Shown: one piece after another, positions 20,601 to 61,007 of the stretch
Numbering within the stretch: the first letter of the stretch is position 1
How the letters are laid out: the number at the start of each line of letters is the position of its first letter
Assembly (NCBI RefSeq): GCF_963676685.1
Contig: NC_092344.1
Coordinates: 121,272,001 to 121,336,000, forward strand
Direction: 5' to 3'
From: Mytilus edulis
Lineage: Eukaryota
DNA length: 64,000 nt
The notes under the pieces: model-generated
Seen by the model: the letters and a program-made list of their open reading frames with translations, nothing else
The model's database searches: none
Told to the model about the DNA's origin: nothing
Program-made: the position numbers and the translations under genes

Positions 20601-23600
20601 GATGAAATCATAATCTTTCAGTCAGTTTAATTGAAGTCTGGAGCTGGCATGTCAGTTAACTGCTAGTAGTCTGTTGTTATTTATGTATTACTGTCATTTT
20701 GTTTAGGCTTAAATTAAAATATTGTTTGTTTGCAGTTTACCGACCGAACCTTGAAAATCCTCCCGACTGTGAAAATTTTATTGCTTTAAATTTGAAGAAA
20801 TTTTTTTTTTAATACATCTATTGACGCGATCCGGAACTTTGGGTCCTTTCCAGAAATGATTTAAAGTCTGGGTCAATTACGCATTTCAAGTTCGGTTTTT
20901 CTTAGCTTCCCGTCAAGCGTTCATGTGACCATTTAATGATAAAGCACATGGAAATTGTTTACAGGTATCCATGAAGTCACGGAGGAGTACTTTACGCTGT
21001 CGTCTCGTGTCAATTTTAAGACAAATAACAAACAAAAGTTTATTATAGTAAACTGTTTATACAGATTCAGGCACATGTAATGATGTGTGATGATATCATT
21101 GACGATGATGCAGCGGATATTCATAACTGACACGATAACCATTCTGTCTCAAACAAATCGGTATAGAATCTGTGGAGCCTGACTTTATGGAACCAATTTC
21201 TACAAATCGTTGTGAAGACGACAAAGATGAAACCACTCCTCCGTGACTTAAATCTTCATGGATATCTGTAAACACCCCTGTACGGAGGAAGGGCTCATTT
21301 GAAATGTTAATGGATATAGATCATGCCAAATCAATAAGAAGCAACCCTAACTACACAAAGATGTAGAGAAAATGAATGGTTAGCTTGAAAAATAAATATA
21401 CTCTCTATATTAAATCTATCTTCGATTGCAATGAGTATGCTTCTTTAGGATAAGGGGGGCTGCCCCACTAATTGCAATTATTCTCTTTCTTACAATATTA
21501 AATGTACCCAAACTGTGTGGCCTGTGTGATTTCAATTAAAACATGTCCTCAGGAGCTATGCTGCAAATTTTTTTTATGCATTAAAAACATTTCAGTACAG
21601 ACCATTTACTTTTAATGGGGTGCTATGGATTTCACCCCAAACTTTAGATTTCTTTGGTTTTCATTAAAGCCTGGCAAAAATATAACCTTATCACATATAA
21701 TTAAATATTGATAGAAATATGAAAACAGTCGAATGTCTTAATACTTTTTTTTCAAGTTGCCTTTTTTTCAATTGGGGAAGATTCAATGGTTATTTTTTTT
21801 TATTAAAAATACACTCTTTAATACATTGTCTTATAAATCTTTAATATCTACATTTTTCTGATGAAAATACTCATGAAAACATTCTCATATTCTAGTCAAG
21901 AAGCATACATGTCTGAATATATTTCTTTAAAACAGTTGAGTTCTAGTCATAATAACATTCCTTGTTTATAAGTGTTCCAGTATTTAATAATTATACCATA
22001 TTTTATGTCATAAATTGGATAATGACACTATGTTAAAGTTTCAGTTTTGGTTAAAAAGTTTTTTATCTGAAAATGCCTGTTCATTTGATGTTGGTTTTCA
22101 GCATGTCCAGTGTTTGTTGTTTTAAAATGTTTTTTTTTCTTCACAAGAAACTTGGTTTAGTGTACATGTAATTGCTTGTTTAAACTATTTTGGCTGATAA
22201 AATAAAATATTTTTCCTACCTACCGACCCTTCAGTCTGAAGGTACAGTCGGAAAACTGCAAACAAACATATTTTTAAGGTTGGCCTTATTTTCTTTGGTT
22301 ACATCTTCTGATATCAGACTCGGACTTCTCTTGAACTGAATTTTAATGTGCGTATTGTTATGCGTTTACTTTTCTACATTGGTTAGAGGTATAGGGGGAG
22401 GGTTGAGATCTCACAAACATGATTAACCCCGCAGCATTTTTGCGCCTGTCCCAAGTCAGGAGCCTCTGGCCTTTGTTAGTCTTGTATTATTTTAATTTTA
22501 GTTTCTTGTGTACAATTTGGAAATTAGTATGGTATTCATTATCACTGGACTAGTATATATTTGTTTAGGGGCCAGCTGAAGGACGCCTCCGGATGCGGGA
22601 ATTTCTCGATACATTGAAGACCTGTTGGTGACCCTCTGCTGTTGTTTTTTATTTGGTCGGGTTGTTGTCTCTTTGACACATTCCCCATTTCCATTCTCAA
22701 TTTTATATTAAAGAAATTTATCCTGTTGAACTTACTTTAAATAAAGCTAATACTAACAATGACCACTGCCCTTTCCTCGATCTTGATATCTATATCACTA
22801 ACGGAAAGCTGAATACTAAAATTTATGATAAAAGAGATGATTTTTCATTTCCTATCGTTAATTATCCATTTTTAGATGGTGACGTTCCCTTGTCACCATC
22901 TTACGGTGTTTATATATCTCAACTTGTACGATTCGCTCGTGTATGTAACAATGTTTTAGATTTTAACAAGAGAAATTTATGTATTACTGAAAAATTATTA
23001 CACCAGGGTTTTCGATATCACAAACTAGTCAAAACATTTACTAAATTTTATCATCGGTATAAGGACATCATTCGTAAATATAGCTCAACATGCAGACTTC
23101 TTATACGTTCAGGTATTTCACATCCAATTTTTTATGGAAATATTCTTTATAAAGCACAAAGGTGTCAGTATTCACCTCAAAAACTAACAAAACCTTTGAA
23201 TAGACTAATTAAGAAGGGATATAGTTACGATACTGTTGTCAGGTCATTAAAGATTGCATATTTTGGCGTTAATATTGATTCACTTATAGGGTCTTTTCAT
23301 CGGAACTAAACACATTTATTCAAAAACCAGTTGTTGGAATGATACGGGTTAAGTTCTTCTCATATATGTTATGATGGTATGATACTAAACCCCTAACGGG
23401 AAGGATTGTGCCTGATGTTCATATGGTAAAATCATAATCTTTCAGTCAGTTTAATTGAAGTCTGGAGCTGGCATGTCAGTTAACTGCTAGTAGTCTGTTG
23501 TTATTTATGTATTATTGTCATTTTGTTTATTTTCTTTGGTTACATCTTCTGACATCAGACTCAGACTTCTCTTGAACTGAATTTTAATGTGCGTATTGTT

Positions 23601-26600
23601 ATGCATTTACTTTTCTACATTGGCTAGAGGTATAGGGGGATGGTTGAGATCTCCCAAACATGTTAACCCCGCCACATTTTTGCGCCTGTCCCAAGTCAGG
23701 AGCCTCTGGCCTTTGTTAGTCTTGTATTATTTTAATTTTAGTTTCTTGTGTGCAGTTTGGAAATTAGTATAGTGTTCATTATCACTGATCTAGTATATAT
23801 TTGTTTAGGAGCCAGTTGAAGGACGCCTCCGGGGGCGGGAATTTCTCGCTACATTGAAGACCTGTTGGTGACCTTCTGCTGTTGTTTTTTTCTATGGTCG
23901 GGTTGTTGTCTCTTTGGAACATTCCCCATTTCCATTCTCAATTTTATATGAAATCTAAAATTAAAAGTTCAAACATACCATTTAATTTTTGTAGATGATG
24001 CTCATTTATCTGGTTGACATCCTCTTTATGTGTACACAATCTGGTTGCTAGGATACCATCTCTCTGTATGTTTTGTTTTGCTGTAGCTCTCAAGGTCGTG
24101 TAGACATAGTCAGGACACCTATAAGAATAGTACATAGATGTCAACAGATACAATCAAACACTTGATACAACAATCTCAAGATTTAAATCTACAAAGCTTT
24201 ATAAATACAATAGTTTTAATGCAATACTGTTAACGTTGAAATCCAAGGGACTGACAAAAGAATTTGAATTAAGACTTATCCAAGGTTTAACTCATCCAAG
24301 TTCATATGTGTCACCAAAAATTTAGAATGCATGAAATACCTACGAGGTTTGTTTAAACTAGATATATTTTTTTTTTTAGATATGATAATTTATGATTGAG
24401 TAATCAATTTTCCTAACATTCATCAGTCACTATTAATTATGGAATCTTGAATATAAAATCTTTTTTTACCTCCATTTTGTCAAGTTCCCCCACAAGATTC
24501 TTGAAAGAAAAGGTAGAGGGTATTGTAGAAAAGATATTCCAATGATATTCTGTGCAAAACAAATAAATTGTTGGCAGTTCATGCAGTTAGACCATCTAAG
24601 TATTTTCTATTGTCATACTACAAACCTTCCTAGCCTAATTTGTTGAAGAACATCTATAAATGATTTATCTGACTGTCTTCTTACTTCTGTTAGTTCTATA
24701 TTCATCTGAATACATTTCTTCCAAGCCTGAGTCTGAAATTATTAAACAATAATCTGAATACATTTCTTCCAAGCCTGAGTCTGAAATTATTAAACAATAA
24801 TCTGAATACATTTCTTGAAGCCTGAGTCTGAAATTATTCAAAAAATACTTCTATATTTATAACTAATGTTTCAAAGTTCAATAGGTGTCTCTTAGTTATT
24901 TTTATGGGTCAGTTTCTTGCATCTGGGTTTTTACTGTAAGCCAAGCTCTTAATCAAAATCCATCCTTTAACCTTTATGTTGATTATGAGAACAGATCAAA
25001 AGTCATATAAGTTTTTGAAGTGCATGTAAGACAATGAAGTCCTTTCAGCAGAATCATTTATTATTCATTAACACACAGTATAAGAGAGATTATTTAACAT
25101 GATGCTATTTCTTGAACTGAGCTCTACCTGAAAACAGAAATTGACTTTTTCTTTGCCTTTGGTAACAGGAGGTAACTGAAGAAAATCTCCACACATTATC
25201 AGCTGTATTCCACCAAAAGGTTGGTCATTCCTTCTTATCACTCTGTTAACAAACAATGTGCAGCTAGATTATTCAAACGTTCAAAAGAAGTTTACCTATA
25301 CATTACCTCAATTTAACTTATTTTCAATCATATACAATGCAGTAAACTTAAACAATCTTATCGTGTAGACAAATTTTCTTTAAATACTAATTTTCTTAAG
25401 TAAAGAACCAAAATGTAATACATACATGTACTAAAAATAAATGAAGGAATGGTTGTATATACACAATATTTATTACATATACTACATAAATAAGGTGCTG
25501 AGCAAAACCAACAACAACAATTTATGAACCTTTGTTAGCACAGTCACATATATGTAACCCACGCCCAACATTGTCATGTGGTAAACATAATCTTCAAAGA
25601 CTCATAACTCCTACAAAAGTCTACTGTTAAAAGTTTCTTGTTGATTTACACATCTACTTATCTACAAAGTTTCATGAAATTCTGTTTTGTAGTGTCAGAG
25701 AAGTTGTGATGACCAACTGTTACAGAAGTATATTTAGACCAATATTTTCAGTTCAATTGAACATGACTTCTAAAAAGAGAATTGAATACTAATTTTCTAC
25801 ATAGTTTGTCGAAATTCTGTAACTTTTTTTCAGAGAAGTTGCAATGACAAGAACAGGACTGACTAAACGAAGAACAATCCAAAATCCTTGGACCCTTTGC
25901 ATGGGGTATAATTAGATAACCAATATTATTTCACATGACTTATTTACAGGAAATGTTCATTATCCCATGTAGGAACCACTGAGACTTATTTATAATCTCA
26001 CTTTATGTTAAAGTTACCTAGCAACAGCTTCTAATTTTTCAAAGAATTCTCCATCCACCATAGATATTTCATCAATAACTAAATGTTTACATTTCCTCCA
26101 TTGCTGAGCTACCTGTGCTCGTGATGCTAGTTGTACACAATGCTCTAATGTACCCCTTCCTGATCCAATACCTACAAAATAAAACATAACTTGACAAATG
26201 ACAGCATTTATCTTATTAATAAGAACAAGAGTTTAAATTTATAATCAGCTGAGTTTATGAATATTTTTTAATGCAATTGTATAATACAAATGTATACTAT
26301 TTCAGGAAAGCCAATATTAATTCTTTGCTGAGCTACCTGTGTTCGGGATGCTAATTGTACACAATGCTCCAATGTACCCCTTCCTGATCCAATACCTACA
26401 AAAATTACACAATACGGGAGAAATTACAACATTTATTTTGTTGTTAAAAATAAATTGTATGATGTATGGTATAAATAATTTAACAACTTGTAAGTATATA
26501 TAAGCTATCAAATGACTTTCTAGTGCAATGTCTAGCTGACTAAGTTTATAATCAGCTGAGTCAATTAATATTGTGTTTATAATGCAATTGTTTATTTCAG

Positions 26601-28347
26601 GAGAGCCACTATTATTTCATTTTTAGATCAAATAAATTATTATTGCAAACATTTCACATTACTCCTTTTATAAACTTTTTTTGACAATTGGTGTATTTGC
26701 ACTTCAGGCCATATTTAGTGTTTATATAAAATGAACAGCTGGGAAAATGATACGTATACCCCTTGCAATTCTTGCCGCAATAACATATATAGATGTCATC
26801 TTGTTAGAAATTAGAAAAATGGTGCTGTATAAAAATGTGTCCCTAAAAAAATCAAATCTTAAGTTAAAAAATGTTAAAATGGCTTTATATATATGTTGCT
26901 AATATTTCATCGTTATATTTTAATTACTTACCTGCAAATGCATGTAGAGTTGTCCCCCCTATATGGCAGGCAGCAACACCAGTACTAGCTGTGGCAAATG
27001 TATGCTGCGGTGGCAAAGTTCCTAAAATACATGTTTTTTTCAATTAGATATAGAAGTTTTCCTACCCTTGTTCAATTCATCAACAATGCTACATTCTTCA
27101 TGAAAAGAATCTTTTAAATTCTTAAATATGTTACCGGTACATATATATACAAATATACGAGACAGATTCATTTAAATTTAACATTAGATTTAATAAACAA
27201 ATCTTGCATTTCATAGTATCTTTATTTTTGGGATAAAAAACAGTACAGGACAAAGCAGAGGTTACCTTAATTATAAGTCATTCGCTTATTATTTCATCAA
27301 TAATAATACATGTATTGTAATTGTTTGCACTGTCAATTATGATATATGATGAATGAAAAAAATTATGGTGTGTTAAGATATATTTTTGTACAAATGTAAT
27401 TTTGATTTTGTTACATTTATAATGTACCAGCATGACCAGTAGTTTGATAATCATTCATATCAAGCATGTCAAGTGTAGCAGAATGATTTAAAAAATTTTG
27501 TCACATGATTTCTTATGGCAGTCAGGACAGACTATACATGCTATATTTATGATATAACAAATGCAAATGTACATTGTATGTATCTCAATTTCCAAGATAT
27601 AACTTTCAACAATCTCTATTCATACCATTTACTTTGTCTTGACCAGTTTTAGTAAATACCTATTATTCTTTTCATGAGAAATGACTTCCCAGTACCAGCA
27701 CTCCCTGTAAAGAATACACTCCTTCCTTTAGATACTGCCTCTAATACAGATGACTGTTCTTTACTTAGTTTGACTGGAATAACTGATCTTGGTACTGCTG
27801 TTACTAGTTTTCTGGCCATTTTAACTCCCTTAGGAGGGTGATTTTCCTTGTTATCATCTACTCTTTTCCTCTTTCCTTTAGGTGTGAACAAGTCTTTCTC
27901 CAGCTCTTTAGCCCTAGCTTCATGTACAGTATGAACATCCTTCATAGTCAGAGGGCTTATTTCATCAAAAGTTCTATGACGCTCTGATAATAATTTCTTT
28001 CGATCAGATATGAATCCTTTCTGTTTACCAACTTCTAACTTTGTATGCATTGTTCTTAAGAACATCAACAGTTTATCTGGAGGACAGTTGGACAACATAA
28101 ATTGGATATTCCGATCTGGTATTCTGACTGTGGCCTTCCCATCTTTGGCAAACTTTTTGAAAAGTTTGATTTCTCTTAATGCATATTTGATATCTTTTTT
28201 ACCATAATCAACTCTAAGTGTAACATCATTGAATTCGTTACGACCTAATGATAACGACAAACTTTTATAAGGTGTGCGTTTAATAACATCTCCTGTTTTT
28301 GTCAAGTCTTCTACAACTACAGAGCAGGTTAGCAGATTCATATCCAT
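11679..28347 (-). CDS. PIF1: ATP-dependent 5'-3' DNA helicase PIF1, 615 aa
   Basis: Coding exons 28347-27660, 27021-26932, 26171-26018, 25242-25128, 24732-24626, 24118-23979, 18353-18247, 17337-17250, 12522-12377, 11891-11679; 1848 nt, phases consistent. Motifs [76 protein letters not shown]. Confidence 0.96.
12715..13490. repeat. Degenerate ~40-bp minisatellite in a PIF1 intron
   Basis: Unit approximately GTCATGTGCTAGTTAACTAGATATGTTCCTGACACTCT, interrupted by a MITE. Confidence 0.85.
12900..13135. mobile_element. PIF/Harbinger-type (Tourist-like) MITE, 236 bp
   Basis: ~33-bp TIR GGC(C)AAATAAAAA..TATGTGTGGTTCCA.TTAC; TTA TSD. Neighbouring minisatellite units show the empty site GCTAGTTAACTAG. 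Confidence 0.85.
14848..16030. mobile_element. Helentron-associated non-autonomous element with internal tandem repeats, plus a nested second family (15207-15655)
   Basis: Starts ACAAGAGTGCACA..CTGAAATGTCTCGCC; homologous to 29616-30740. The nested piece is homologous to 18562-19620. Class assignment rests on structure only. Confidence 0.65.
16598..17190. mobile_element. MITE with TIR GGTACCCAAATTG
   Basis: GGTACCCAAATTG at 16601 and CAATTTGGGTACC near 17174. Confidence 0.6.
17467..17938. mobile_element. Helentron-associated (CvA/Pearl-like) non-autonomous element
   Basis: Two ~180-bp internal repeats, a GACG/GAAC microsatellite and a terminal stem-loop ATGCCCC.CTAC..GTAG.TGGGGCAT before an A-run. 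Confidence 0.65.
18562..19620. mobile_element. Helentron-associated element carrying a ~193-bp internal satellite
   Basis: Repeat landmarks at 18847, 19039, 19232, 19425; terminal hairpin TTTTCGACTAAAGTCAAAGG; shorter copy at 15207. Confidence 0.7.
20536..20602 (+). promoter_or_regulatory. Putative type II SECIS element in PLE 3' UTR (copy 1)
   Basis: Helix I TCATAT/ATATGA; core ATGAT...TGAT; helix II GGTATGATAC/GGATTGTGCC; AAA bulge; CCC-CTAAC-GGG mini-stem. Folded by eye. Confidence 0.7.
20706..22285. mobile_element. Non-autonomous PIF/Harbinger-type DNA transposon, 1.58 kb
   Basis: ~45-bp TIR GGC..AA.TTAAAA.AT..GTTTGTTTGCAGTTT.CCGAC; TTA TSD. The empty site is visible in the second PLE copy (23521 TTTTGTTTATTTTC). 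Confidence 0.88.
23360..23426 (+). promoter_or_regulatory. Putative type II SECIS element in PLE 3' UTR (copy 2)
   Basis: Core and helix II identical to copy 1; begins ~50 nt after the RT stop at 23309. Confidence 0.7.
24704..24838. repeat. 3 x 48-bp tandem duplication spanning a PIF1 3' splice site
   Basis: Unit ATCTGAATACATTTCTTCCAAGCCTGAGTCTGAAATTATTAAACAATA at 24704, 24752, 24800. Confidence 0.93.
26101..26615. repeat. Older tandem duplication of a PIF1 intron/exon boundary
   Basis: 26325-26404 copies 26101-26179 with 4 exonic substitutions; intron segments 26197-26318 and 26510-26613 also align. Confidence 0.85.
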
Positions 28348-28705
28348 GATGCTTTGTGGCTTTCTATAACATAAAGTAAAGAATGAACACATGTAGTGAA
28401 ATAAAATACAATTTAAGAATTTATTTTTCTTTTACTAACCATTAACTACACTAGCTGCTAAGCACATGACTAGTAGCTATATAGACATTTAACTTTTATG
28501 AGAGTAAGTTTGCATTAAACTTTGTACATTTTTATCGAGTATCATAAATTCAAGACTTGCTTTACAGATTCTGACAAACATGCATAACAGAGTAATTTTT
28601 AGCGTACATTTAGCAACACCCCCTTATTGTCAGATCCTAACTTTGACCTTTGTCAAAATTTTGTTCCAGAGTTTTAATATAATTAATGTTTAAAAAATCA
28701 TTTTA

Positions 28706-29338
28706 AGGGCATACCATACAGTTACAGGGGAGGTAATGACATTGCTAAAGTAAATTGTTATTTTTGCGACGTCAAACTATGACTTATCAGGAAAAGATGC
28801 AGTTTTCAGCTGATTTTTATCATTCAAACTCATTTAACTTGAAAACGAGTTCATGGACCCCTCTTTTTTAAAATGTCATTTGGTTTGATTACGCGAGAAA
28901 ATTATGTGTGCCAATTTTCATGAAAGCGTAAATAGTGCACTTTTTTTTTAATTTGATAAATATCATGAATATACAGCTAAAAAATTATGTTTTTTTCTAC
29001 ATTCATGAACATTTGATAAATATGAGTTATTTCTGAATAAAAAATGTATAAATTTTTAGGGTACTTATAAAATACAGAAATTACAAATTATTTATTAAAA
29101 AACATTTTGTGTTTATCTTTCAAACAAAAAAGTAATGTTTTTTTTTCGAAAGGGAAAAGATGGCCACAAATCCGAGTTTTGAGCAAATATACAAAATTTC
29201 AACCTCATTTTACTCAAAAAATAGCACATGAAGGTATATTTTTTATTACATATTTGATTTAATTAGGTAAAAAATAGTCTATATGGATTTTTTTTTATCA
29301 AAATGTAAATACGGGATCAAAACTGTATCGTATGCCCT
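28706..29338. mobile_element. MITE with TIR AGGGCATAC(C/G)ATACAGTT
   Basis: Near-perfect 18-bp TIRs flanked by TA (TTAA-like site). Confidence 0.8.
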
Positions 29339-29615
29339 TATTCGCATGATAAGTCTTTTCTCCAGTTTAAGCTTTAACAATGTTTAATGTGTTTGATATT
29401 TTATATAGGAGTCAAATCTTTTTGATGTATACATTTTAACAGTATTTCATGATTTTATGAAAAATTTTGTTTACAAATTTTTTGATTCTTCATTAAATCA
29501 ATATTAGATAGTCATACTACATGTACATGATGTATACTAGTCCAAATGATTATGACTTTTTCCATTTGATAGGCTATTTTATTTTTTTGCAAGTGGGAGT
29601 AAGCCTTGAAAGCAA

Positions 29616-30740
29616 CAAAAGTGCACACGCTGAAATGTCTCGCCTTCTTTACTTACATGTATCATTGATATTATGTTGATAGTCCTTGATATCAACATGA
29701 TAAAGCTTTATTACAACTGTCACATAAACTTAACATTAACCAAGAAAACTAAACATTGAACAATGAACCATGAAAATGAGGTAAAGGTCAGATGAACCAT
29801 GCCAGGCAGGCATGTACAGCTAACAATTCTTCCATACAACAAATATAGTTGACCTATTGCTTCTAGTTTAAGAAAAACAGACCATTAAAACACAAAAACT
29901 TAACACTGAGCAATGAACCATGAAAATGAGGTCAAGGTCAAATAAAACTGTGCGACTGACATATACATGCAGATCGTAAAATATTTCCATACACCAAATA
30001 TAGTTGACCTACAATGTATTGCATATAGTATAAGAAAAAAAAGACCAAAACTTAAAAACTTAACTTTGACCACTAAACCATGAAAATGAGGTCAAGGTCA
30101 GATAACACCTGCCTGAGTGCCAGCTAGACATGAACACATTACAATCATTCCATACACCAAATATAGTAAACCTATTGCATACAGTATAAGAAAAACAGAC
30201 CAAAACACAAACACTTTACTATAACCACTGAAACATAAAAATGAGGTCAAGGTCAGATGACACCTGCCAGTTGGACATGTACACCTTATAGTCCTTCCAT
30301 GCATATACACCAAATATACTAGACCTATTGCTTATAGTATCTGAGATATGGACTTGACCACCAAAACTTAACCTTGTTCAGTGAATCATGAAATGAGGCT
30401 GAGGTCAAGCGAAAACTGTCTGACGGGCATGAGGACCTTGCAAGGTTTGCACATACCAAACATAGTAATCCAATTACTTATAAGAAAGAATTTAAAATTA
30501 CAAAAAATCTAGCTTTCTTTTTAAGTAGTCACTGAAACAAAAAAATGAGGTCAAAGACATTGGACATGCGACTGATGGAAACTTTGTAACATGAGGCATC
30601 TATATAAAAAGTATGAAGCATCCCGGTCTTCCACCTTTTAAAATATAAAGCTTTTAAGAAGATTGCTAACACCGTCGCTGCCAGATCGCTATTCCTATGT
30701 CGAGCTTTCTGGGACAAAGTTTCGCAGACTCAACAAAAAA
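29616..30740. mobile_element. Helentron-associated element with ~150-160-bp internal repeats
   Basis: Repeats of AACCATGAAAATGAGGTCAAGGTCA and a terminal hairpin; homologous to 14848-16030. Confidence 0.7.
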
Positions 30741-32037
30741 TAGAACATGTAGAATAGCCTGTTACATCATAATTTTTTGGACTACATGTTGATGTATACA
30801 TGCTACAATGCTGTAATAATTCTATATGCAGGTAAATTAAAAATTGAAGTTATTTATGATATATACATGTATATCACTTGTCTTCTGTAGCTCTCTACAT
30901 TTTCAAGTCTTTGGAACCTGATGAACATCATGTTCAGTAGTTGTTGTTTATTGATGTGGTTCATAAGTGTTTCTCATTTTTTTATACAGATTCATGTGTA
31001 AGACCGTTAGTTTTTCCGTTTGGATGGTTTTATACTAGTCATTTTGGGGACCTTATAGCTTGGTGTTAGATGTGAGGATGTGAGCTGAGGCTCTGTGTAA
31101 AAGTGTGTAACTGTTGAAGTCCGAACTTTTACCAATAATGGTTTATCATTTACAAATTGTGACTTGGACGGAGAGTTGTCTCATTGGCACTCATACCACA
31201 TCTTCTTATACATGTATCTATTAGGCTATTAAAATATGAAATCAGAAGACCTGGTTTTAACTTGTAGTGCTAAATTACATTTTACCTGTACATGTATTCA
31301 AACTATCAATTATTGAGTTCCAGTACTGTTAGTCAGAGATTACTCTGACGTCCAACAATTGTAAAACTTTTGTCAAAAAAAGATATCTTTTCAAGACATC
31401 ATAATTATTTGGACTACAGTACGCTGGAGCCTACTAGTCTCAGAGTATGTTAAACATTTTGGTGACCATTTCTTCTCTCTACCGTCTAGTTAAAGCTAGA
31501 AATATACAGACTAAATGAATTAGTACCTTCGATGATGTACAATACACCTTCAAAAAGGTTTCTGTCAAATTTTGACATCATAATAGAAAATATCTGACGC
31601 CACAATGGAAAAGTGATTGTTGTATGACCTCAAAAGTTCAAGCAGACAGTTTCTGGGGTCAAGCCGGAATAGCAATAAGGTGTATTGTTGTATTTTGAGT
31701 TTATGCCCCATGAGCTGTTGACGGTCCATGTTGAGTCCAAATTATTATGACGTCTTGCGAGGCAGAAGGCGTCCAAGAAAAAAAATAGCCTTGCATGTTT
31801 ATATATACATGATATAATACGATAATAAACATAAAAATATCGTATTTGTCAAAATTATTTACTATGAACTGAAGCATTGTGCCTTTTGGCGAATGATTGA
31901 CTCTTATATCAGTATTTATACTATGCCAATAAAAAGTGTGTTGTTAAATTGCTGAAGCTTATATTAAACACTACCTGAACACCTAGTTCGCGTCTGTAAG
32001 TTTTCATAACAAGTGCGAGGATTCGAAATGAATGCTA

Positions 32038-33129
32038 GTCAATTCGTTCCAAGTCCGATTCGTTCCAAGCCAGTTCGTTCCAGATTTGGACAATTCGTAC
32101 CAAGTCAATTGTCAATTCGTTCCAACTGATTTATTTCATTATTAATCAGACTTAACAATGTGTTCCACCTTATTAAGTTCATTATTAAATCAGACTTAAC
32201 AATTTGTTCCAACTTTTTTATAATGTATATGTCCCTATATCACTGTATTTTTGTAAATCAACCTACAGTGCACGGCAAAAATCGGCAATTCCTTGTCCAT
32301 TTTTTCTGTATATTTCATATAAAAGATAATTTCTCAATAACACATGTTCATCCTAACAGTTCATAAGATAATTGTTCAATAGTCTTTCAGTATTTCACAT
32401 ATTTCATTTTGCTGGTCAACGGATGGCACAATGATAAGTGCAACAGATGTCATCAGCTGGGTAACTGTAATTTTCTGGCTTCTATAGCTGTCCCAAAGCT
32501 CCATCATCTTGGACTGTGATCTGTTTGTGGCAGCTGCTTACTTTTTTTTCGGTTTCGTACAAGGACACTGAGTAAATTTTTATATTGTACCTACACAACC
32601 AGTGCTAATGAGTAATAACGATGCACGTAAGCAAAACATAGCAAATGTGGTATGTCAGCCTTCAATTATTATTGACAAGCGTTTATGACCCAAAGTACGA
32701 TATTATTCTTTTGATGAATGCATTAACAACTGTTATGCGCACATCATTGAAATACAATAATCAATTATAATGATTACTATTTCTTTGAAAATATCATTAG
32801 TTAGTCACTTTATTCATTTTTTAAATATTAAATTTGTCATGAAATAGTTACCTTAATAATTATCAATATATTATCATGCCCAATATATCGTTCTTCCCAA
32901 TTAATAAACCATAGAATTTTTTAGATACTTATTTATATTCATTTTTTATAAGTACAGCATTAAAAATTAAAATAATAAGTCTATTTAAATGGTTAATATT
33001 GTTTAATACTGTTCTTGAATAAGTTGGAACGAACTGAGCAGTTTTTGGAAAAGTTGGAACGAACTGACCAAGCAACTTGGGACGAATTTGTTGGTACGAA
33101 TCAGAGTTGGAACGAATCATCCAGATACC
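32038..33129. mobile_element. Non-autonomous DNA element with inverted arrays of subterminal repeats
   Basis: Five (A/G)TTCGT(T/A)CCA motifs at the left end and five TTGG(A/G/T)ACGAA motifs at the right end; right terminus ...ATCCAGATACC. Confidence 0.7.
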
Positions 33130-33300
33130 TTCAAAATTAGTTGTTCTCGGAGTTTATTATTTATGAGAAGAAAACTCCCGAAAGAATGATTATCCAATTG
33201 GAATTTTTGTTAAATTCGACCAATCACAAAGTGGTTCTTTTCAGGACTATTTTCAAAATGAAAGTGAAAGAAGATAAATTTTGCTGATTTTTTTTGGGTA
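33130..33300. promoter_or_regulatory. Putative divergent promoter core for TTC33/PIF1
   Basis: CCAAT boxes at 33194 and 33220, TTTGAA (CHR-like) on the minus strand at ~33130, candidate first-exon donor near 33298. Candidate PIF1 first-exon donor CAG|GTAGTG near 31974. Confidence 0.4.
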
Positions 33301-34037
33301 AAAATATTGTATACATGTATTAAAAAATGTCATTTTAAATTGTCAGTTTCATATAGATGTAATACAGAATAGAATAGAATAGAATAGAATATTTTTATTA
33401 ACCCAAATTGAAATTAGGGCCCCCAGGAGGGCATATCATACAGACAATATTATTATAAACAATAACATGAAATACACAAACAATGAAAGATCACAATCAC
33501 AATCACAACATATAATGGGAACTAGAAATACAACATTTGTTTTGCTTGTTCATTTGTATAAATGTTTTAATATATGTACTTTTTTTTGTACATAAATAAA
33601 CAATGATAAATAAATATTTTCTAGTTAGCTAGAGTTTCATAGATTCTAACTGACATACAAGTCATAACTTAACAAAAAAACAAGCATGCAAGAATTTAAA
33701 TTTCAAAATCTAAAAACTAAAAATTCCCTTTGCCAATTATGCCATAAACATGGATATTTGATATGAATTCTGTCATTCATTGGATTTTCATTCTTTGTTT
33801 GTTATAATCATTAATCATTATGCCCGCAGTGCCCAAAATTGGCTAATAAAATTTATCTTATCTTATCTTATACTGGCCCTGCAACATACAAATTCAGATT
33901 CAGAAAATGAAGCACTATTTATGATTACAGTGTTTTGCCCCAAGCCCTTACAATTTTATGGCTTCAATCACCATCCAAGGTCTGACCAGTTACTGGTTTT
34001 GGAATAAATGTGCTGGTCTGTAATTACAGAATGAATT

Positions 34038-37000
34038 ATGACATCATTTTCTTGGAAGAAGAAAACAGGCAGTAGTGTAAAGCGATCTGTATCAACAGCA
34101 TTTGAGGAAGACACTAAAGATGACAATGAACAGTTAGAAGGTGTTGATTGGCTGACACTTGTTCCTCACAGAAAAATTGTTTGTCTTGAAGATGCGTTAT
34201 CTAAAAGTGCCAGACTTAAAAATGAAGGGTCATTACTGGCTGAATCTGAAAGGTAAAATTGCAAGATTTAGTCTGAGATAGGTCGGGCATCCCACAGCTT
34301 TTGTTTGGTAAATATTGCATAAATTGCAGTCAATAATAGATGAAGCTACTAAGCCTTTTAGTTCAATGGCTTGATAGTTATATCTTCCAAGCCTCATCTT
34401 GAGAGTTCAAATAACGTAAAGCATTGTGGTAAACACTTTTGAGATTATATTCATGCCCATGTCAAGCTATTGATTTATAACAATATAAACAACTATTAAT
34501 GTTACAAAAGGATGTGTATTTGTTTAACCATACTTGTCAAGATCTTTTTTTTTTTTTTATAAAAAATTACATACAAGATGAGTATGGTGGTTATATCTAT
34601 CTGATCAAAAAAAGTTTGAGTGCAAATACAACTATCAAATGATGTGGATGTTAGCAATTATAGGCAACTGTACAGACTTCAACAATTAGACAGACCAATA
34701 TTTTACAGTCAGCTATAAAAGGCCTGATATATGCATGATATGTGCAACAATTCAAACTAAAAAAATAACATCCTGATTTATAACAGAACATTTTACAAAA
34801 TAACAGATACAATGTATAACAGATATGAACGAACAACAACAACTGAACTACTGTCTCCAGACTTGGGACAGGCACATAAAAAATATGACAAGGCTGAACA
34901 TGTGTGTAAGCACTCAACAGCCCCAAATTTGGAACAGTGGTGTAACTGCACAACATAAGAACAAACTAAAAATCAGTTGCAGTTGGCTTTATTGATATAC
35001 AAAGATGGAGATATGGTATGATTGCCAATGAGGCAACTATCCATGTGACTAAAGTTCAAATGAAGTAAGTTGATTTCAAAAAGAAAACAATGCTTAACTT
35101 TCAGCAATGTTTGGTGTTCAAAACAACTTTGATTTAGGCATTGCTTGGGCTTTTAGATATCAGAATAGTCCTAAAATATACTAGAAAATGATAAAAAAAA
35201 CATTAGTGGCTGAATTTGAAAGGGGTTTTAGAAAGAAAACCAAGACTATAGAACAGAGATAAAGATGAATTAGTTGCTAAATTTTGACAGATTTTATTGG
35301 ATGAATTGTAAGACATAATAGTGTCCTGGGAAATAGTGTCCATATGGACACTTTTTCCTAGAATTTAGGTATTCAATAATGTCCATTGCCATGGAATATT
35401 GTCCTCTAAGTGGACACATTGTCATAGCAATATCTATGAAATAGTGTCCACTCGACTACAAAATGTTATGAAATAGTTGCTATAAGAATCATGTATGTTT
35501 ATTTCCATAAATATTTTAGAATAAAAAGAAAGAAGGGATTTCATTTATATTTTTACTGAGTTTTGTTTTTTGTTTTTTACTATTTAATTTGTAAAGAGAC
35601 AATAAAACAACTTGAGAACAAAAAGAAAATAAAGGTGGCATGTTTGGCCTTTTTCTATAACTGATACAATAATGATTTTTTGTGATTTTTAAACTAACTT
35701 GTACACTTATAGGTACTGGGAAGCTATTAAGAAATGGGACGAGGCCATACAGTTTACACCTGAAGATGAAACAATCTATGAAATGAAAGCTCAGGTATGT
35801 TATTTTAATGTTAATTCTATATATGTGTAAAAACAATTATTTTCTAATCATGAATTAAATTGAACAGCTAACATCTCTGTTCTTTGGTCTCTAGTTGATA
35901 GTTATATTATTGGAAATCATACCACATCATCTTATTTTTATACAGATTAAAGTATAGTACATGATTTATATAGATTCCCCAAAGGTTGTAAATAATATGT
36001 GATATTACTTCTATCAGGAGTTAAGGTATATTGTTTCTCAATAGCAGAAAGATTGAGTTGGTTATTTTTCTCCAGTATGTTTTAAAAAACCCATATTTAG
36101 ATAGGACTAGGTTGTTAACATTGATGTGATGTCATAATGAATTAGCTTCCAATCACAGCATATAATGATACTGTTTTATTGTGTCTCACAGAACTATTTA
36201 ATACCACTAGGCTATAACTGTATAGAGGATTTAGAGGTAAAAAGAGTAGGATCAATGCTTTAAGACAAATGAGATGTTATAAAGTCTCACATAACTAATT
36301 AATACCACTAGGCTATAACTGTATAGGGGATTTAGAGATAAAAAGAGTAGGAACAATGCTTTAAGACAAATGAGATGTTATAAAGTCTCACATAACTAAT
36401 TAATACCACTAGGCTATAACTGTATAGGGGATTTAGAGATAAAAAGAGTAGGAACAATGCTTTAAGACAAATGAGATGTTATAAAGTCTCACATAACTAA
36501 TTAATACCACCAGGCTATTACTGTATAGGGGATTTAGAGATAAAAAGAGTAGGAACAATGCTTTAAGACAAATGAGATGTTATAAAGTCTCACAGAACTA
36601 ATTAATACCACCAGGCTATTACTGTATAGGGGATTTAGAGATAAAAAGAGTAGGAACAATGCTTTAAGACAAATGAGATGTTATAAAGTCTCACAGAACT
36701 AATTAATACCACCAGGCTATTACTGTATAGGGGATTTAGAGATAAAAAGAGTAGGATCAATGCTTTAAGACAAATGAGATGTTATAAAGTCTCACAGAAC
36801 TAAATAATACCACCAGGCTATTACTGTATAGGGGATTTAGAGATAAAAAGAGTAGGAACAATGCTTTAAGACAAATGAGATGTTATAAAGTCTCACAGAA
36901 CTAATTAATACCACCAGGCTATTACTGTATAGGGGATTTAGAGATAAAAAGAGTAGAAACAATGCTTTAAGACAAATGAGATGTTATAAAGTCTCACATA

Positions 37001-40000
37001 ACTAATTAATACCACCAGGCTATTACTGTATAGGGGATTTAGAGATAAAAAGAGTAGGATCTATGCTTTAAGACAAATGAGATGTTATAAAATGAAGGGA
37101 ATGTGAAAAACATTTGTTGCAGGATAAAATAATTTGTATCTAATAGGAAATATTGATACATTTCTGATGAAGCCTTTTACAGTACTATAATCTGAACTCA
37201 GTCACATACATTCTAAAGTAACAGTAAACACATTTCTTTATTTCTATTGCTCTTTCATTTACAGTAGATTGGATTGCAAGACCATGAATCCATTTTGTTA
37301 TTTACAATAAGGTCTTAATTTCCTTGCAGCTTATATATCCTGTTGATTATGACTCGTTTGAAATACTTCTGAGAAATATTCAAAATGCAACAACAGGCGC
37401 ACTACATAGAATATCAATTGTAACTTCACTTTCTGATTGGTAAATGATTGTATGGCCTGCAGTTTCATACATTGAATACATTTATGTTTAAAACTATTTA
37501 TTAATTGAAGTTGGTTTTCTATACAAAAAGAAAAGTAGTAAACTTAGTTGAAGTTGTAACCAGCTTAGATGCTAATATTAACCCTTAATCAAATTTAATA
37601 GTCCTAGATTGTTTTGACGTCTAGGTCCCACAGCATCACCTACTCCCTAAAGATGCTATCAATGTTCAGAGTAAACTCAGACTAATGTATAACTGTCTTT
37701 TCACAGGTTTTATTAGCATTATGTGAAGTTTTTCCTGCCCTAGCTATGGCTGAAAAGGTTGTGAAATTAAAACCAACATGGTGGACTGGTTATCAGACAT
37801 TAGGGCGTGCCCAGCTCGGTCTTGGGGAAGTCAGACAGGTATAATACAATGCTTTGTTTTTAAGGTCAGACATTAGGGCGTGCCCAGCTAGGCCTGGGTG
37901 AAGTCAGACAGGTATAATACAATACTTTGTTTTTAAAGTCAGACATTAGGGCATGCCCAGCTAGGCCTGGTGAAGTCAGACAGGTATAATACAATACTTT
38001 GTTTTTAAAGTCAGACATTAGGGCGTGCCCAGCTCGGTCTTGGGGAAGTCAGACAGGTATAATACAATACTTTGTTTTTAAAGTCAGACATCAGAGCGTG
38101 CCCAGCTAGGCCTGGTGAAGTCAGACAGGTATCATACAATGCTTTGTTTTTAAAGTCAGAAATTAGGGTGTGCCCAGCTAGATCTGGGGGAAGTCAGACT
38201 GGTATAATACAATGCTTTGTTTTTAAAGTCAGACATCAGGGTGTGCCCAGCTAGGCCTGGGGGAAGTCAGACAGGTATAATACAATACTTTGTTTCTGAA
38301 GTCAGACATTAGGGCGTGCCCAGCTAGGCCTGGGGAAGTCAGACAGGTATAATACAATACTTTGTTTTTAAAGTCAGACATTAGGGCATGCCCAGCTTGG
38401 TCTTGGGGAAGTCAGACAGGTATAATACAATACTTTGTTTTTAAAGTCAGACATCAGAGCGTGCCCAGCTAGGCCTGGTGAAGTCAGACAGGTATCATAC
38501 AATGCTTTGTTTTTAAAGTCAGAAATTAGGGTGTGCCCAGCTAGGTCTCGGGGAAGTCAGACTGGTATAATACAATACTTTGTTTTTAAAGTCAGACATT
38601 AGGGCGTGCCCAGCTTGGTCTGGGTGAAGTCAGAAAGGTATAATACAATACTTTGTTTTTAAAGTCAGACATTAGGGCGTGCCCAGCTAGGTCTGGGTGA
38701 AGTCAGACAGGTATAATACAATACTTTGTTTCTGAAGTCAGACATTAGGGCGTGCCCAGCTAGGCCTGGGGAAGTCAGACAGGTATAATACAATGCTTTG
38801 TTTTTAAAGTCAGACATTAGGGCATGCCCAGCTTGGTATGGGTGAAGTCAGACAAGTGTAATACAATACTTTGTTTTTAAAGTCAGACATTAGGGCATGC
38901 CCAGCTTGTTCTGGGTGAAGTCAGACAAGTGTAATACAATACTTTGTTTTTAAAGTCAGACATTAGGGCGTGCCCAGCTAGGTCTGGGTGAAGTCAGACA
39001 GGTATAATACAATACTTTGTTTTTAAAGTCAGACATTAGGGTGGCCCAGCTAGGTCTGGGTGAAGTCAGACAGGTATAACACAATACTTTGTTTTGTTGT
39101 AAAAAAATAATAAGATTGTGATATTCTGTTGACAATGATTATAATTAATTTGTCAAACAAATAGAAATTACAGAAACACATTTATTGGTGTTTTATTTAC
39201 ATACATAGAAACCAACTGCTTACATATTGAAAGTTTAGTCTGTATCTCAGATTCTCTAAGCATTTGGTTTATAGGTAAGCTAATCATAGATAACATGAAA
39301 AAAATTTGTATGCCAGACACATGTTTCCTCTAAAAGACTGATCAGTGATGCTCAAATCAAAGGATTTCAAGGTGTACATGTTTATCAGGTATGTTTCATT
39401 TGATCTTGACACCATTTATATACTAGATCACTGAATCAGGCTCACACATGTTTTTGGTTTATATATTTACATATTTCTTTCAGAAAATTTAAGCTGTAGT
39501 TTTAACTAACTAACTTATCCTCTTCATGCTGACTGGCATATAAGGCTGGTAACAGGTCTCTCCACTGTTGTCTGTCCTTTGCAATCTTCTCCATTGTCCT
39601 TCGTCATGTTTCTTTTGGTCTTCCTGTGTTTCTTTTACCTTCGAATGGTGTCCATTTCAGAGTTTTTTAGGTGATGTTATCCTGGTCTTTTCTTTAGGTT
39701 TGTCCTATTGATCTGAATCTCCGTTTTATGGTTGTCATTAGATCTTTTTGTCCTATTCTTTTGTACAGTTCTTTTTTTGATATCTGCTGGCCAATATATC
39801 TTGCATATTTTCCTAAAACATTTGGTGTGGAATCCAGAGAGTCTTTGGCTGTCTTTCTGTGTTATTCTCCAGCATTCTGCACCATACAATAAGGTAGAAA
39901 GAACATTATTCTGGTAGATCTTTATTTTTGTTTTTTTTCAGTTATGTTGCCTGTTCGTCATATTTTGTTTAGTTGGTGAAAAGATGCCCTGGCCTTTTGG

Positions 40001-41809
40001 AGTCTGTTTGAGATGTCTTTTTCTGTTGCATTGTTTTTGCTGAGAATACTGCCCAAATAGTTAAAGTTGTCTACTTCCTCTAGTAGTTCACCACTGGTTT
40101 ATCGCATTGAAGGTAGGTGTAAGTTGCATTGTTTTTGTTTTCTTCTTGCTGATGTTCAATCCAGTTTGGTGTGTTTGCCTAGATCTAGGGTTTTCTTTTG
40201 TAGATGGTCAGCATTGCTTGAAAGTAGAGCTATATCATCTGCAAATTCAAGATCTTCCAGCATTGATCATGTTGATGTAAAGTAAGTTCCACCTAATTCC
40301 ACAAATTGTATTTCATATTGCTTGCCTCATTACCCAATCACTAATGACAAGGAAAAGCAGTTCAACCACAATTTATTTATGGAATGATAAGGTATAAGTT
40401 TAATTTGGCAGGTTTCATGAACTTTCATCTGAATTTTTAACCCTTTTTCATTGTTCATTGGTCAAGGTTAATTGTTCATTGCTTAGTCAGTTTATACGAT
40501 TCTTTAAACAATACATTTGGTTTTTGAGGGGAATGTAGGGTGTACAGTTTATCTGGCAGGATACATTATTTTGTTTTTCATATACTTCAATTTGTTTATG
40601 GACTCATCACAAGATGTGTGTGTTCATCTGGCAGGATTGATAGAAACATTCTGTCATTGCATAACAAAAATATTGCCACTTAGTAGGAAATAATATGTCA
40701 CTCGTGTAAGCCTGAAAGGAAGTAGGAAAAACCAGTTGTAAATAATTTTAATTGTATATTATTGCGAATGTTTTAAATGTAATTTGTAAATAGCCAAGAG
40801 AGAACTTTCTGTGTTGCCCGACACTGCGTAAAGTTTTTACACGGAACAAATAACATTCAGCATTGAATCTGGTTCCTGACCTGGAAGAAGATACATTGAA
40901 TCTGGTTCCTGACCTGGAAGAAGATACATTGAATCTGGTTCCTGACCTGGAAGAAGATACATTGAATCTGGTTCCTGACCTGGAAGAAGATACATTGAAT
41001 CTGGTTCCTGACCTGGAAGAAGATACATTGAATCTGATTCCTGACCTGGAAGAAGATACATTGAATCTGGTTCCTGACCTGGAAGAAGATCATTGAATCT
41101 GGTTCCTGACCTGGAAGAAGATCATTGAATCTGGTACCTGACCTGGAAGAAGATACATTGAATCTGGTTCCTGACCTGGAAGAAGATACATTGAATCTGG
41201 TTCCTGACCTGGAAGAAGATACATTGAATCTGGTTCCTGACATGGAAGAAGATACATTCACCAGAGAGACAGAGCAATACACACACATTACAATGTTAAA
41301 AACAGAAGGCATTTATATTTACAATCTCCCAATATTTTTAATTAAGAGACTGGTACCCCGCTACTTGAGGTATATTATACCCATTGAATCTTTTTAAGAA
41401 AAGCTGGATCCATAAGAATAATAGAAGTTTCTATATTGAAGGTTAATATACAATATGTTTTATGGGAATTAATGCTATGAAATAATTATTTCAGGCAATA
41501 AAGAGTTTCTCAAGGGCAGTACATTTAAATCCAGCTGATGAAGAGTTATGGAAGGAAGACTTTTTATGGTCATTCTCATTACTAAAACAAAAAGCTGATC
41601 AACAGAAAATGTTACAACAAGAAATGGATAATTCTAAAGTGAAACTAACAGAACTGAGTGATGAAGACACTGACATAGTGACAGAAATTAGTGAGGAGAA
41701 ACAAGGAACAAGTGAGAAAAATACAAGTTTATCTACAATTGATAAACATCCACCTGAACCAGAAATAAAATATCTACCTCAGAATTATGTACATATGAGA
41801 GATAAATGA
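34038..41809 (+). CDS. TTC33: Tetratricopeptide repeat protein 33, 247 aa
   Basis: Exons 34038-34252, 35713-35794, 37707-37838, 41495-41809; phases 2,0,0. Motifs MTSFSWKKK, RYWEAIKKWDEAIQFTP, YEMKAQVL, QTLGRAQLGLGE, ELWKEDFLW match TTC33. Confidence 0.94.
36183..37091. repeat. 101-bp tandem repeat, ~9 copies, in a TTC33 intron
   Basis: AATACCAC landmarks at 36301, 36402, 36503 and onward; copies nearly identical. Confidence 0.95.
37793..39095 (+). repeat. 72-73-bp tandem repeat, 18 copies, made of the TTC33 exon end and its 5' splice site
   Basis: Units start at 37793, 37866, 37939 ... 39029; the first unit overlaps the coding exon (QTLGRAQLGLGEVRQ|GTATAA). Confidence 0.96.
39503..40350 (-). 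mobile_element. 5'-truncated, decayed RTE-clade LINE
   Basis: LEDLEFADDIALLS, FNYLGS and YGAECWRIT..KIYWP in shifted frames; short (TAGT)n 3' tail. Confidence 0.8.
40861..41258. repeat. 33-bp minisatellite, ~12 copies
   Basis: Unit CATTGAATCTGGTTCCTGACCTGGAAGAAGATA; two units are 1 nt short. Confidence 0.95.
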
Positions 41810-42429
41810 TACATATGAGATTGGTTATTTTACTTGTAAATCTTTTGATGAAAGAAATGAAGTGATATTTACCCATACTCAAGGGTTGACTGTACTTCCA
41901 TTCCACAGTAAAAACCCTTGTCAAGTGGAGTGTCAGTTTGATATAGAAATATGCAGCCCTTCCCATCAAGAATATGGATGTTATATCATTTGTCCCATTT
42001 ATGATGAATGCCAAGCTCCTTGCACCTTAAAAAGCTGTGCAACAATTACTGTATATTCAGAAATTATTTTGTACATTTATTATTGTGATTTTTGAGAAAT
42101 AAACAATAATGTAAGAAATTGAGATTGATAAATGTAATTTAAGGAAATTTTTTATTAGATATCTGAATATAATTTTTGGCTCACCCTGGCTTTTCTCATC
42201 ACTTTTTTATCCGGCTTTTATCCTTGTCTGTTAACTTTTACAAAAATCTTCTGAAACTACTAGGCCAAAGGAGTAGGTTCAGTAAGACCCCTTTTTGGTC
42301 CCAAAAAGTAGCAGTTTTACAAAATTGTTAAAATGTAAACCTTTAGTTATTTATTATACAATAGAATGCTTCTGCTACATAAATATGGGCTGTTTTTGAC
42401 AATACAATGCACATGTATCCGGTACTAGT

Positions 42430-44275
42430 CTCGTGATCGTATAATTGTAGTTTGCGTTGTGTTTTGAATAGAGAAAAAGACGTCTATACAAATGGATGAT
42501 TTAATGCTGGTAAGATGCAATGACGTTAATACATAGCAACCATGACGTTACATATAGAGAGCGGTAACGCGTATAAGTACATGTATGAATCCCGCGTAAT
42601 GTGATTGTCTCTATTTATCCTCGACATACTCGGGGCCGGGAATTTGTGCAATTAAAGTCTCAATGAGCAATTTATCTAAATTACGATATTTATCTATAAA
42701 ATGAAAAGAAATGAAATATTTGAAACTTTAAAGTCTATAAATCACATTTAAAACTATCTCTGAATCAAGTTGCGATTGAAAATTGTTCTCAATTATAATT
42801 ACAGTCTCTGATTGCGGTTTTGTAAACGAACACTCCTTCTAAGTATTTGCGATTCATCATTGTCGGTTTTTTTTAACGCGATGATGAGGTATGTAGTGTA
42901 TGCGCTGTGAGTCCTCCTTCTCTTCTATCTTTTCGATGAAACCACGTTTTTTCTGCTTTGTACAGGATGAAAATTCTTTGATGTTCTGTTTTTCCGTGTT
43001 AAGTTTGTCGTTTTCTTGTATACCAAGGGACTTCAATTTCCAAAATCTCTCAATATCGTAGTCCTCTTTTGTGTGACTAGATAATATATGCATCATGTGT
43101 GAATCGCGTTGTACTCTTGTACATGTAAGTGGTCCAGATAACAAATATCCTATTTTTGAGCTCATCGCTGTCGGTCCGTCGCCTCGAACGATATCATCCA
43201 TGATTGCATCCCAGTAATGGTCTGCTCCAATGAGTAAAGAAATATCAAAGCTGTTATCCTCTGATAACGGGTGGGCTAGTTTTAGTCCTTTCAAATAATG
43301 TAGTTGCTGCGAAATGTACCTGCGGTTATTCTGAATCGGCGCTGCTATGGTAGGTACAATCAATACCTGTAAAGGTATTTTCTCTCCTGAGTCGGCTTCT
43401 AAAAACACTGTGGCTTTATTCATGTGACGAACGTTCTTGTCCGAATTTCCGAAGTCGGATATGTTGAGGGTTTCCTTTCCGTCTGGCTTGACGTTCAACT
43501 TGTCGGCTATTTCCTGCGTCATAAATGATCGTTGTGCTCCTTCGTCGAAAAGGATGTGAGCGTCGGCGCACTGATTCTGTGACCATATTGGGGCTATTGC
43601 TGTTTTCAAAAAGACGGTCGAATTTTCCTGTTTAGCAGATGTATCCATGATTGGCGTGCTGTTTTCTGTATTACTTGTAACATTCTGACTCTGTGAATTT
43701 TGAACTGAAGTTTCATTGCATAAACTAGTGTGGTGCTTACGTTGACATTTACGGCATGTGTTTTTCGACCTACATTCTGATATTCTATGGTTACCTAAAC
43801 AATTGAAACATAGGTTTCTCTTCTTAACAATCTCCATTCTTGATTTGCTGTCGGTGAACTTTTCACAGTCTGCAGGGAAATGTTGATCATTGCAATAAGT
43901 GCACATTTTACTTTGAGAATAGTTTATAGATTTTGATTTATTTACGTAATACCCATTTTTCTTACTAATTCCGGCATGGAAACTTGCGGTAGGTATATCA
44001 TAAGATTCACTCCCATCAGTGCTAGCTTCTTGAATAGATATTTCCCGTTGTATTGCCTTTCTTAGATTTCCAAGGGTCCAGTCGTCGTTTCCGTTTTCTC
44101 TTGTGATATTACTTTTAACGCTAATAGGGAGCTTACCAAGCGTAACTGGGATTAACAGGGAACCATACATATCTTGGCACTGTCCTAAAGATTCTAGTCC
44201 ACGGATATAAACCTCTGACTTATCCGAAAAATTACGGATACTATCTAATGTGTATGAGGGTGCTGGCAAATCTAA
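42430..44275 (-). mobile_element. BEL/Pao LTR retrotransposon fragment (gag-protease, start of RT, partial 3' LTR)
   Basis: ORF 42857-44269 has three Cys/His knuckles (CTYC..HFPADC, CFNCLGNHRISEC, CRKCQRKHHTSLC), an aspartic protease motif LFDEGAQRSF, LLIGADHYW and HYIPHH. CCGGCCCCGAGTA|TGTCGAG marks a probable LTR start at 42626. Confidence 0.85.
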
Positions 44276-60614: not shown

Positions 60615-61007
60615 TCTGATGATCTAGCCTACAAATATACATTTATTAGTTTCCCTCAAATTATATAAGTAAGACAGCGGTTTAACATAAAAAAAGAAAG
60701 TTAAACATAAAAAATCAAAAAGACAATTAATATATAAATACTTAAATGGGAAAACAATAAACTGTACGATGATAGCTTTGCTGTGAATTAAAGTTTCATT
60801 TGGCTTATAAGTCTTACTAATTATAATAAAAAATGTACTAAAAATGTGTCAAAATATTACAAAATTGTAGTATTCAGCTATATTTGAGCATTTCAATTCT
60901 ACCATGCATTATGAGACTTAATTATTATTGTTAGTAACTTGAAATACACATATGTGATATAAAATGAATAGATCTATAATAGACCTGGTGTAAAGAAAGA
61001 TACTTTT

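Follow-up and report, generated by a model that had tools for sequence, protein, structure and literature searches.

A 64,000-nt stretch of the Mytilus edulis genome (NC_092344.1, positions 121,272,001 to 121,336,000; hereafter the window) contains two adjacent genes with three local duplications that each span a splice junction. Two lie at acceptors of a PIF1 helicase gene and one lies at a donor of a TPR-protein gene that we take to be TTC33, a name that no search returned. The three repeats are ordinary members of an already described class, the so-called mirages (PMC3087553, PMC1557585). What is new here is a rate and a donor/acceptor asymmetry for junction copies, since about 1 intron in 22 of the genes sampled carries a copy of its own junction, and donors are copied 2.5 times as often as acceptors. 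Junction copies are recurrent and genome-wide in the sampled genes. Taken together, junctions show no clear enrichment for such copies over intron interiors, but donors by themselves do, by about 2-3-fold.

Splice junctions duplicated in the window

The PIF1 gene occupies 11679..28347 on the reverse strand and has 10 coding exons that encode 615 amino acids. Its identity follows from matches of exons 1 and 3 to Pfam PF05970 (E=8.8e-8 for exon 3), and exons 1-6 are covered by spliced RNA contigs (X15, X16). The putative TTC33 gene is found on the forward strand at 34038..41809, with 4 coding exons and 247 amino acids; TPR families were returned for its exon 3 (Atlas), and its single exons had no match in Pfam. 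Both gene models were built from sequence, and all of their introns are GT-AG.

In PIF1, the acceptor (24732) of exon 5 (24626..24732, reverse strand, 107 nt) is spanned by a threefold tandem duplication of 48 nt at 24704..24847 (reverse strand; 95% matches; unit and copy number called by Tandem Repeats Finder), which includes 28-29 exonic nt and provides two decoy acceptors, at 24780 and 24827. The acceptor (26171) of exon 3 (26018..26171, reverse strand, 154 nt) is spanned by a twofold duplication at 26101..26403 (reverse strand) with a spacing of 224 nt, 71 exonic nt and a single decoy acceptor at 26395. A repeat finder resolved this pair as a 79-nt direct repeat (26101-26179 and 26325-26403; 95% alike), and decayed similarity on the intron side reaches to about 26600. 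The third duplication is a 72/73-nt minisatellite at 37793..39095 (forward strand) that spans the donor (37838/37839) of TTC33 exon 3 (37707..37838, forward strand, 132 nt), for which Tandem Repeats Finder gave a 73-nt unit, 17.9 copies and 91% matches. Its unit consists of 46 exon-like and 27 intron-like nt, the last 46 nt of the exon forming the exonic part of the first repeat unit. The array contains 17 decoy donors, 16 units with a weak AG in front and six 45-nt in-frame pseudo-exons. It is also nested, with a higher-order 363-nt block repeat and 95% identity at a five-unit offset; such block duplications are what unequal exchange would be expected to leave.

The authentic junction forms a terminal unit of each of the three arrays; the additional copies are all intronic, and the decoys retain the splice dinucleotide (GT in 17/17 TTC33 copies, AG in 3/3 PIF1 decoys). 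The first-pass annotation of this DNA had placed the three duplications (x3, x2, x18) across these same splice sites, with 29-71 exonic nt in each and the protein left intact, and our coordinates bear this out: 28-29, 71 and 46 exonic nt are included, and neither gene model has an internal stop. Whole-exon copying, as in tandem exon duplication, was not seen, with 28-29 of 107, 71 of 154 and 46 of 132 exonic nt copied. The PIF1 repeat units are PIF1 exon sequence, and a genome search, made with the TTC33 unit only, placed 18/18 matches inside the array. Judged from the assembled sequence, the x18 array is unlikely to be an assembly artefact, given that its units differ by ~9% and that it has a nested block structure. 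Copy-number polymorphism of the x3 array was considered when a DNA contig of run X4 was found to end its match at the array edge (24703) with 157 letters left over; because assembly graphs break at repeats, this is no evidence for polymorphism. When two DNA runs were aligned to PIF1, the joints listed fell on other repeats.

An 11-nt direct repeat around the TTC33 stop codon (41790..41820, forward strand; copies at 41790/41810) had been listed as a fourth case. The repeat is present, but it touches no splice site, and 76 exact repeats of the same size and spacing occur in the window; we therefore rejected it as a member of the pattern. With 3/24 junctions hit, the window somewhat exceeds the frequency found elsewhere in the genome (P about 0.02 without correction), which is unremarkable because the window was chosen for showing the pattern. 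The two genes also contain at least five further long arrays (units of 38, 170, 193, 101 and 33 nt) that touch no junction. The 101-nt unit is repeated nine times (97% matches) at 36183-37091 in TTC33 intron 2 and has genome matches at that locus only; the 33-nt unit is repeated 12 times (98% matches) at 40861-41258 in TTC33 intron 3, where both strands carry open frames.

Frequency of junction copies in sampled genes

The discovery sample comprised 1.6 Mb around 21 dynein heavy chain genes of the same genome and 200 kb beside the window; one dynein exon of this genome shares 98% identity with a Mytilus coruscus protein, in line with its mussel origin. It was annotated with a purpose-built spliced profile aligner, which yielded 865 introns, 817 of them identical between two rounds. 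At five arrays the aligner ran through pseudo-exons, a trap for homology-based annotation; hand repair of these places left 859 donors and 858 acceptors. An event was scored when a 30-nt segment (18 exon and 12 intron nt) had a copy 30-1500 nt further intron-ward, with at most 4 mismatches, provided that no copy lay exon-ward. The same 30-nt rule applied to intron interiors gave the background, and a refined background left out transposon-borne repeats, the far ends of junction arrays and placements that copy a whole exon. Dispersed sequence made up 236 of the 838 kb of discovery introns. For the held-out set the rule was fixed beforehand. This set consisted of dynein ends (207 introns), myosin loci (124 predicted exons, of which 110 scored positively against a myosin profile) and flank exons predicted ab initio by a predictor that was 91% sensitive and 93% specific on the held-out dyneins. 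P values are Poisson, with junctions treated as independent. Most of them survive when the background is raised to its bootstrap upper bound, and the one for held-out donors of all sizes fails.

The discovery sample yielded 47 events (33 donors and 14 acceptors) with a median period of 78 nt and 2 to 87 copies. Against the refined background, donors were hit 33 times with 10.5 expected and acceptors 14 times with 10.5 expected, and the excess sat at periods of 50-120 nt. In the first held-out part alone (the dynein ends), 3 donors were hit, with about 1 expected. In the whole held-out set, the fixed 50-120 nt class was found at 7/434 donors, with 1.6-2.2 expected (p=0.002-0.007), and copies of all sizes at 10/434, with 3.5-4.6 expected. 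Held-out acceptors were at or below background, both in the fixed class (1/437) and at all sizes (3/437).

Pooling both sets, we found copies at 60 of 2588 junctions, so that the recurrence claimed in the first-pass annotation extends well beyond the window. They comprised 43/1293 donors and 17/1295 acceptors, with 14.0 expected for each from non-dispersed intron repeats, or 23 for each when transposon-borne repeats are counted. The 43:17 ratio of donors to acceptors (p=0.001) divides into 33:14 in the discovery sample and 10:3 in the held-out set. At periods of 30-1500 nt the pooled fold was x1.9-3.1 for donors and x0.7-1.2 for acceptors; the enrichment over intronic background that had been anticipated for junctions in general is thus borne out at donors and not at acceptors. 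Four other segment designs, at periods of up to 200 nt, gave x2.5-2.9 for donors and x1.0-1.1 for acceptors. Donors at periods of 50-120 nt were enriched x4.8-5.2, and no donor excess was seen at 24-49 nt. The rate of copying was 2.5-2.8% across the donor and dropped to 0.2-1.2% from 45 nt inside the intron; the corresponding profile at acceptors was nearly flat, at 0.3-0.9% throughout. The 34 donor events in the 50-120 nt class were spread over 21 gene segments, with at most four in each.

Several individual cases were noted during this survey. Eight of the 86 listed "interior" runs of 50-120 nt in dynein introns start within 7 nt of a donor, and the donor count is therefore probably an underestimate. 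The same donor is duplicated in two myosin paralogues (C9 at 18.43 Mb and C10 at 50.29 Mb; periods of 189 and 60 nt), and these two held-out events may share one origin or represent recurrence. Very long donor arrays in dynein genes on C8, C5 and C3 (regions C8a, C5a, C3b and C3d; 64 nt x87, 74 nt x61, 78 nt x45 and 34 nt x32) make up most of their host introns. A dynein gene on C14 (region C14b) has a compound acceptor, in which a 28-nt acceptor array is followed by a 126-nt copy of the exon start, further 28-nt units and the real exon.

Use of the copied splice sites

Spliced RNA contigs from two studies (X15 record 1, X16 record 6) place the PIF1 joins at 24732 and 26171, in each case the acceptor closest to the exon, which shows these two authentic sites to be in use; among the contig pieces listed, none lies on a decoy. 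At TTC33 exon 3 we infer that the exon-nearest donor is used as well. In silico, use of the PIF1 decoy acceptors leads to stops at amino acid 301 (x2 decoy) and at amino acids 361 and 390 (x3 decoys), and use of any of the 17 TTC33 decoy donors leads to a stop at amino acid 144. The AG that precedes 16 of the TTC33 units scores 2.9-5.0 bits, and the 10th percentile of real acceptors is 5.8. Through the loss of one base, six of the 18 TTC33 units could serve as in-frame cassettes of 45 nt, with weak acceptors in front; every other decoy alternative in the window stops early. Taken as a whole, the duplications of the window are likely to be silent or harmless. The earlier suggestion that such copies furnish the starting material of new exons or introns is not borne out, given the early stops that follow from decoy use outside these six units. 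Nor do they represent intron gain of the Rogers type, as the three units span existing junctions and the PIF1 RNA contigs contain the plain exon set.

Differences between exons and their copies

When exons were compared with their first intronic copies, 64 of 121 differences were synonymous, compared with 38-39% expected (p=0.001-0.003) for a drifting copy and an exon open to synonymous change only, with mutations distributed as in intronic repeats. In TTC33 the commonest differences between copies and exon fall at third codon positions, namely 37817 (16/17 copies), 37823 (10) and 37826 (10); five apparent changes at 37822 are probably an alignment effect of units with a one-base deletion. The synonymous excess is a hint of exchange with other exon alleles, and PIF1 exons differ between animals at the percent level. 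Alternatively, it could reflect conversion from copy to exon under a filter at the protein level.

A number of other causes were considered and rejected. The core GT and AG positions of the copies were intact in 118/120 cases, and these two changes, compared with about 3.6 expected, give no sign of selection to keep or to destroy the decoy dinucleotides. Base composition does not account for the events, for a GC-matched background predicts 11.1 and an unmatched one 9.7 where 38 were observed, and exon-side GC was equal in hit and non-hit junctions; the argument from the rise in hits with junction GC is circular, as GC goes up with the copy itself. Masking of acceptor copies by the low-complexity filter was negligible (0/1293 donor and 1/1295 acceptor segments removed). 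Selection on reading frame is not apparent in the periods, which divide 14/15/18 modulo 3. A local hot region near the chromosome end (the window is 5 Mb from the end of C1) was also dismissed, since local repeats make up 8.1% of the surrounding 264 kb and 7.8% of the dynein genes.

Origin of the copies and competing explanations

The reading that we favour, and to which we give an even chance, is that the copies are neutral minisatellites of the mirage type whose numbers at junctions are raised by slower decay and by exchange anchored in the exon, with the donor skew arising from partial purging of acceptor copies. Such a process would start from local duplications of 30-200 nt, which are common across the introns of this genome. 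Where these span a junction, every extra copy lies on the intron side, and splicing at a copied site nearly always leads to an early stop. Unequal exchange may then lengthen the arrays, in part by involving other exon alleles, because the conserved exon would be the place where divergent mussel haplotypes still pair; this allelic exchange, together with the slower decay of copies that have a conserved exon as partner, may raise the numbers at junctions. Donor copies would be nearly free of cost because the upstream-most donor is preferred, and acceptor copies, which lie upstream of the real site, would compete more and be partly purged. Leniency at donors and purging at acceptors would therefore produce the 43:17 skew.

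Several points weigh against this reading. Slower decay of copies with a conserved-exon partner is worth, by our estimate, up to about twofold, yet pooled donors given a twofold handicap remained at x2.1 (30 compared with 14.0, p=1e-4); exchange with exon alleles and the leniency shown to donors would therefore have to carry real weight. Surviving acceptor copies keep their AG (14/14 in the discovery set) and the window itself holds two acceptor cases, so that purging cannot be strong on the survivors. In the held-out set taken by itself, the synonymous excess (13/27) did not reach significance. The RNA evidence consists of contigs, in which only the main form appears and rare isoforms are lost, and the animals from which they derive may lack the PIF1 duplications.

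The main alternative, which we regard as possible though unlikely, supposes that mutation itself concentrates on 5′ splice sites, perhaps by way of nicks or R-loops linked to transcription or to U1 where the exon ends, such that duplications of 50-120 nt are born there several-fold more often and acceptors stay at background. It accounts for the acceptor counts with no need for a purge, and it would suit the donor excess in all segment designs, the confinement of that excess to one size class and the equal exon-side GC. The presence of no more than 15 intronic nt in 15/43 donor units points the same way, as do the slightly stronger scores of duplicated donors (9.4 compared with 8.5 bits; p=0.01, one of eight tests). 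The 50-120 nt class, however, was picked after the discovery events had been seen, breakpoints are spread fairly evenly (quartile counts of 12/9/4/10), held-out donors under the twofold handicap are not significantly enriched (x1.1-2.0; 4 compared with 2.0-2.2), and the synonymous excess is left unexplained by a focus on donors alone. A combined statement, which we advance only tentatively, is that mussel 5′ splice sites are hot spots at which tandem duplications of 50-120 nt arise and grow, supplied by exchange between alleles of the adjoining exon, with ~1 donor in 30 carrying its own variable number tandem repeat (VNTR). If this is true, mirages would not be scattered oddities but a class of mutation that is genome-wide, strand-asymmetric and linked to splicing or transcription. 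The first-pass annotation had offered a process focused on junctions or a survival bias as the two choices. A concentration at junctions holds, modestly, for donors only; because acceptors are at background while donors are enriched, neither a process acting on all junctions nor a plain survival bias fits alone.

It is improbable, in our view, that there is no real enrichment and that the donor excess arises from the choice of background, slower decay and chance on top of an ordinary rate of local repeats. When the background took in every intronic repeat without exclusion, the discovery ratio for donors and acceptors together was 0.92 (47 compared with 51), and held-out donors set against all repeats of 30-1500 nt were not significantly enriched (10 compared with 6.5-7.5). 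The sample is also drawn mostly from one gene family and rests on the annotation of our own aligner, including its five hand repairs at arrays. Against this, the contrast between donors and acceptors is independent of any background, the held-out donor test fixed in advance was passed, and the donor events are dispersed over many gene segments. We think it very improbable that the decoys are functional, be it as U1 sites that guard the intron from premature cleavage, as back-up donors, as a means of tunable nonsense-mediated decay or as a 15-residue TTC33 cassette. A function would be in keeping with the strength of the TTC33 decoy donors, 15/17 of which score 5.1-7.7 bits and most of which equal the authentic site (7.7), and with the six in-frame cassettes; in addition, the nearest pseudo-sites are reported to be used in human 6-16 and CBS (PMC1557585). 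The copies, on the other hand, bear non-synonymous changes, CpG decay and one-base deletions, the acceptors in front of the TTC33 units score below the 10th percentile of real ones, the GT and AG dinucleotides show no excess conservation, and the affected genes are unrelated, with scattered junctions. Should the rate and the asymmetry extend to the whole genome, the choice between birth at donors and filtering at acceptors would become testable, and by extrapolation the mussel would offer thousands of natural tests of splice-site choice.

Relation to known systems

The closest counterparts are the mirages of amphioxus, described as minisatellite-like duplications of intron-exon boundaries that occur at both edges, leave splicing unharmed, are unstable in length and were proposed as a source of new introns, by a mechanism called unclear (PMC3087553). 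Reported cases are Adh3, the globins BflGb6 and BflGb9, troponin C and PGBD5 (PMC3087553; further cases in PMC3902484). As in the mussel, the copies are in tandem at the 5′ or 3′ edge, with units of tens to about 160 nt and splice signals kept. Length instability between haplotypes was shown in amphioxus. Unlike these accounts, which in the portions seen present single-gene cases without a rate, the present survey of a mollusc gives about 3.3% of donors and 1.3% of acceptors in 2588 junctions.

Five donor-spanning minisatellites are known in human genes, in F7 (intervening sequence 7, IVS7; 37 bp), CBS (IVS13), 6-16, lamin B2 (100 bp) and PDGF (81 bp), and preference for the most upstream donor was demonstrated experimentally for F7 in human cells (PMC1557585). 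As in the TTC33 array, the exon end lies within the first unit and the donor is reiterated in the intron, up to 25 times in the human cases, where splicing usually goes to the most upstream site alone. The F7 unit contains 4 exonic nt compared with 46 in TTC33; TTC33 units, unlike the human ones described there, also end in AG and resemble small exons, and two of the three junctions in the mussel window are acceptors. The Rogers model, in which an intron is gained by tandem duplication of a segment containing AG/GT (Hellsten et al., 2011; PMC3265369), similarly involves a local tandem duplication with splice-like signals. It differs in that sequence internal to an exon is duplicated to yield a new intron, whereas the mussel copies an existing junction. 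In the open-access literature we found no paper with such a rate or donor/acceptor bias, and nothing on bivalves.

Other features of the window

A retroelement-like fragment, presumably of the non-LTR (long terminal repeat) type to judge by its translation, occurs at 19814-23950 in PIF1 intron 6 as two copies that are 98-99% alike at a spacing of about 2825 nt; a repeat with 1240-nt spacing is present there too. Open reading frames (ORFs) of retroelements were found at 42860-44281 (reverse strand) and 50644-51666 (forward strand), with Pfam matches to DUF1758/DUF1759 and the reverse transcriptase RVT_1. Two paralogous, long single-exon ORFs at 45347-46897 and 58884-60623 (both reverse strand) encode hydrophobic proteins that had no Pfam match at E 0.01 and that may be otopetrin-like. 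Lastly, a 28-nt satellite of about 77 copies fills positions 1-2134 of the window and grades into a diverged variant.

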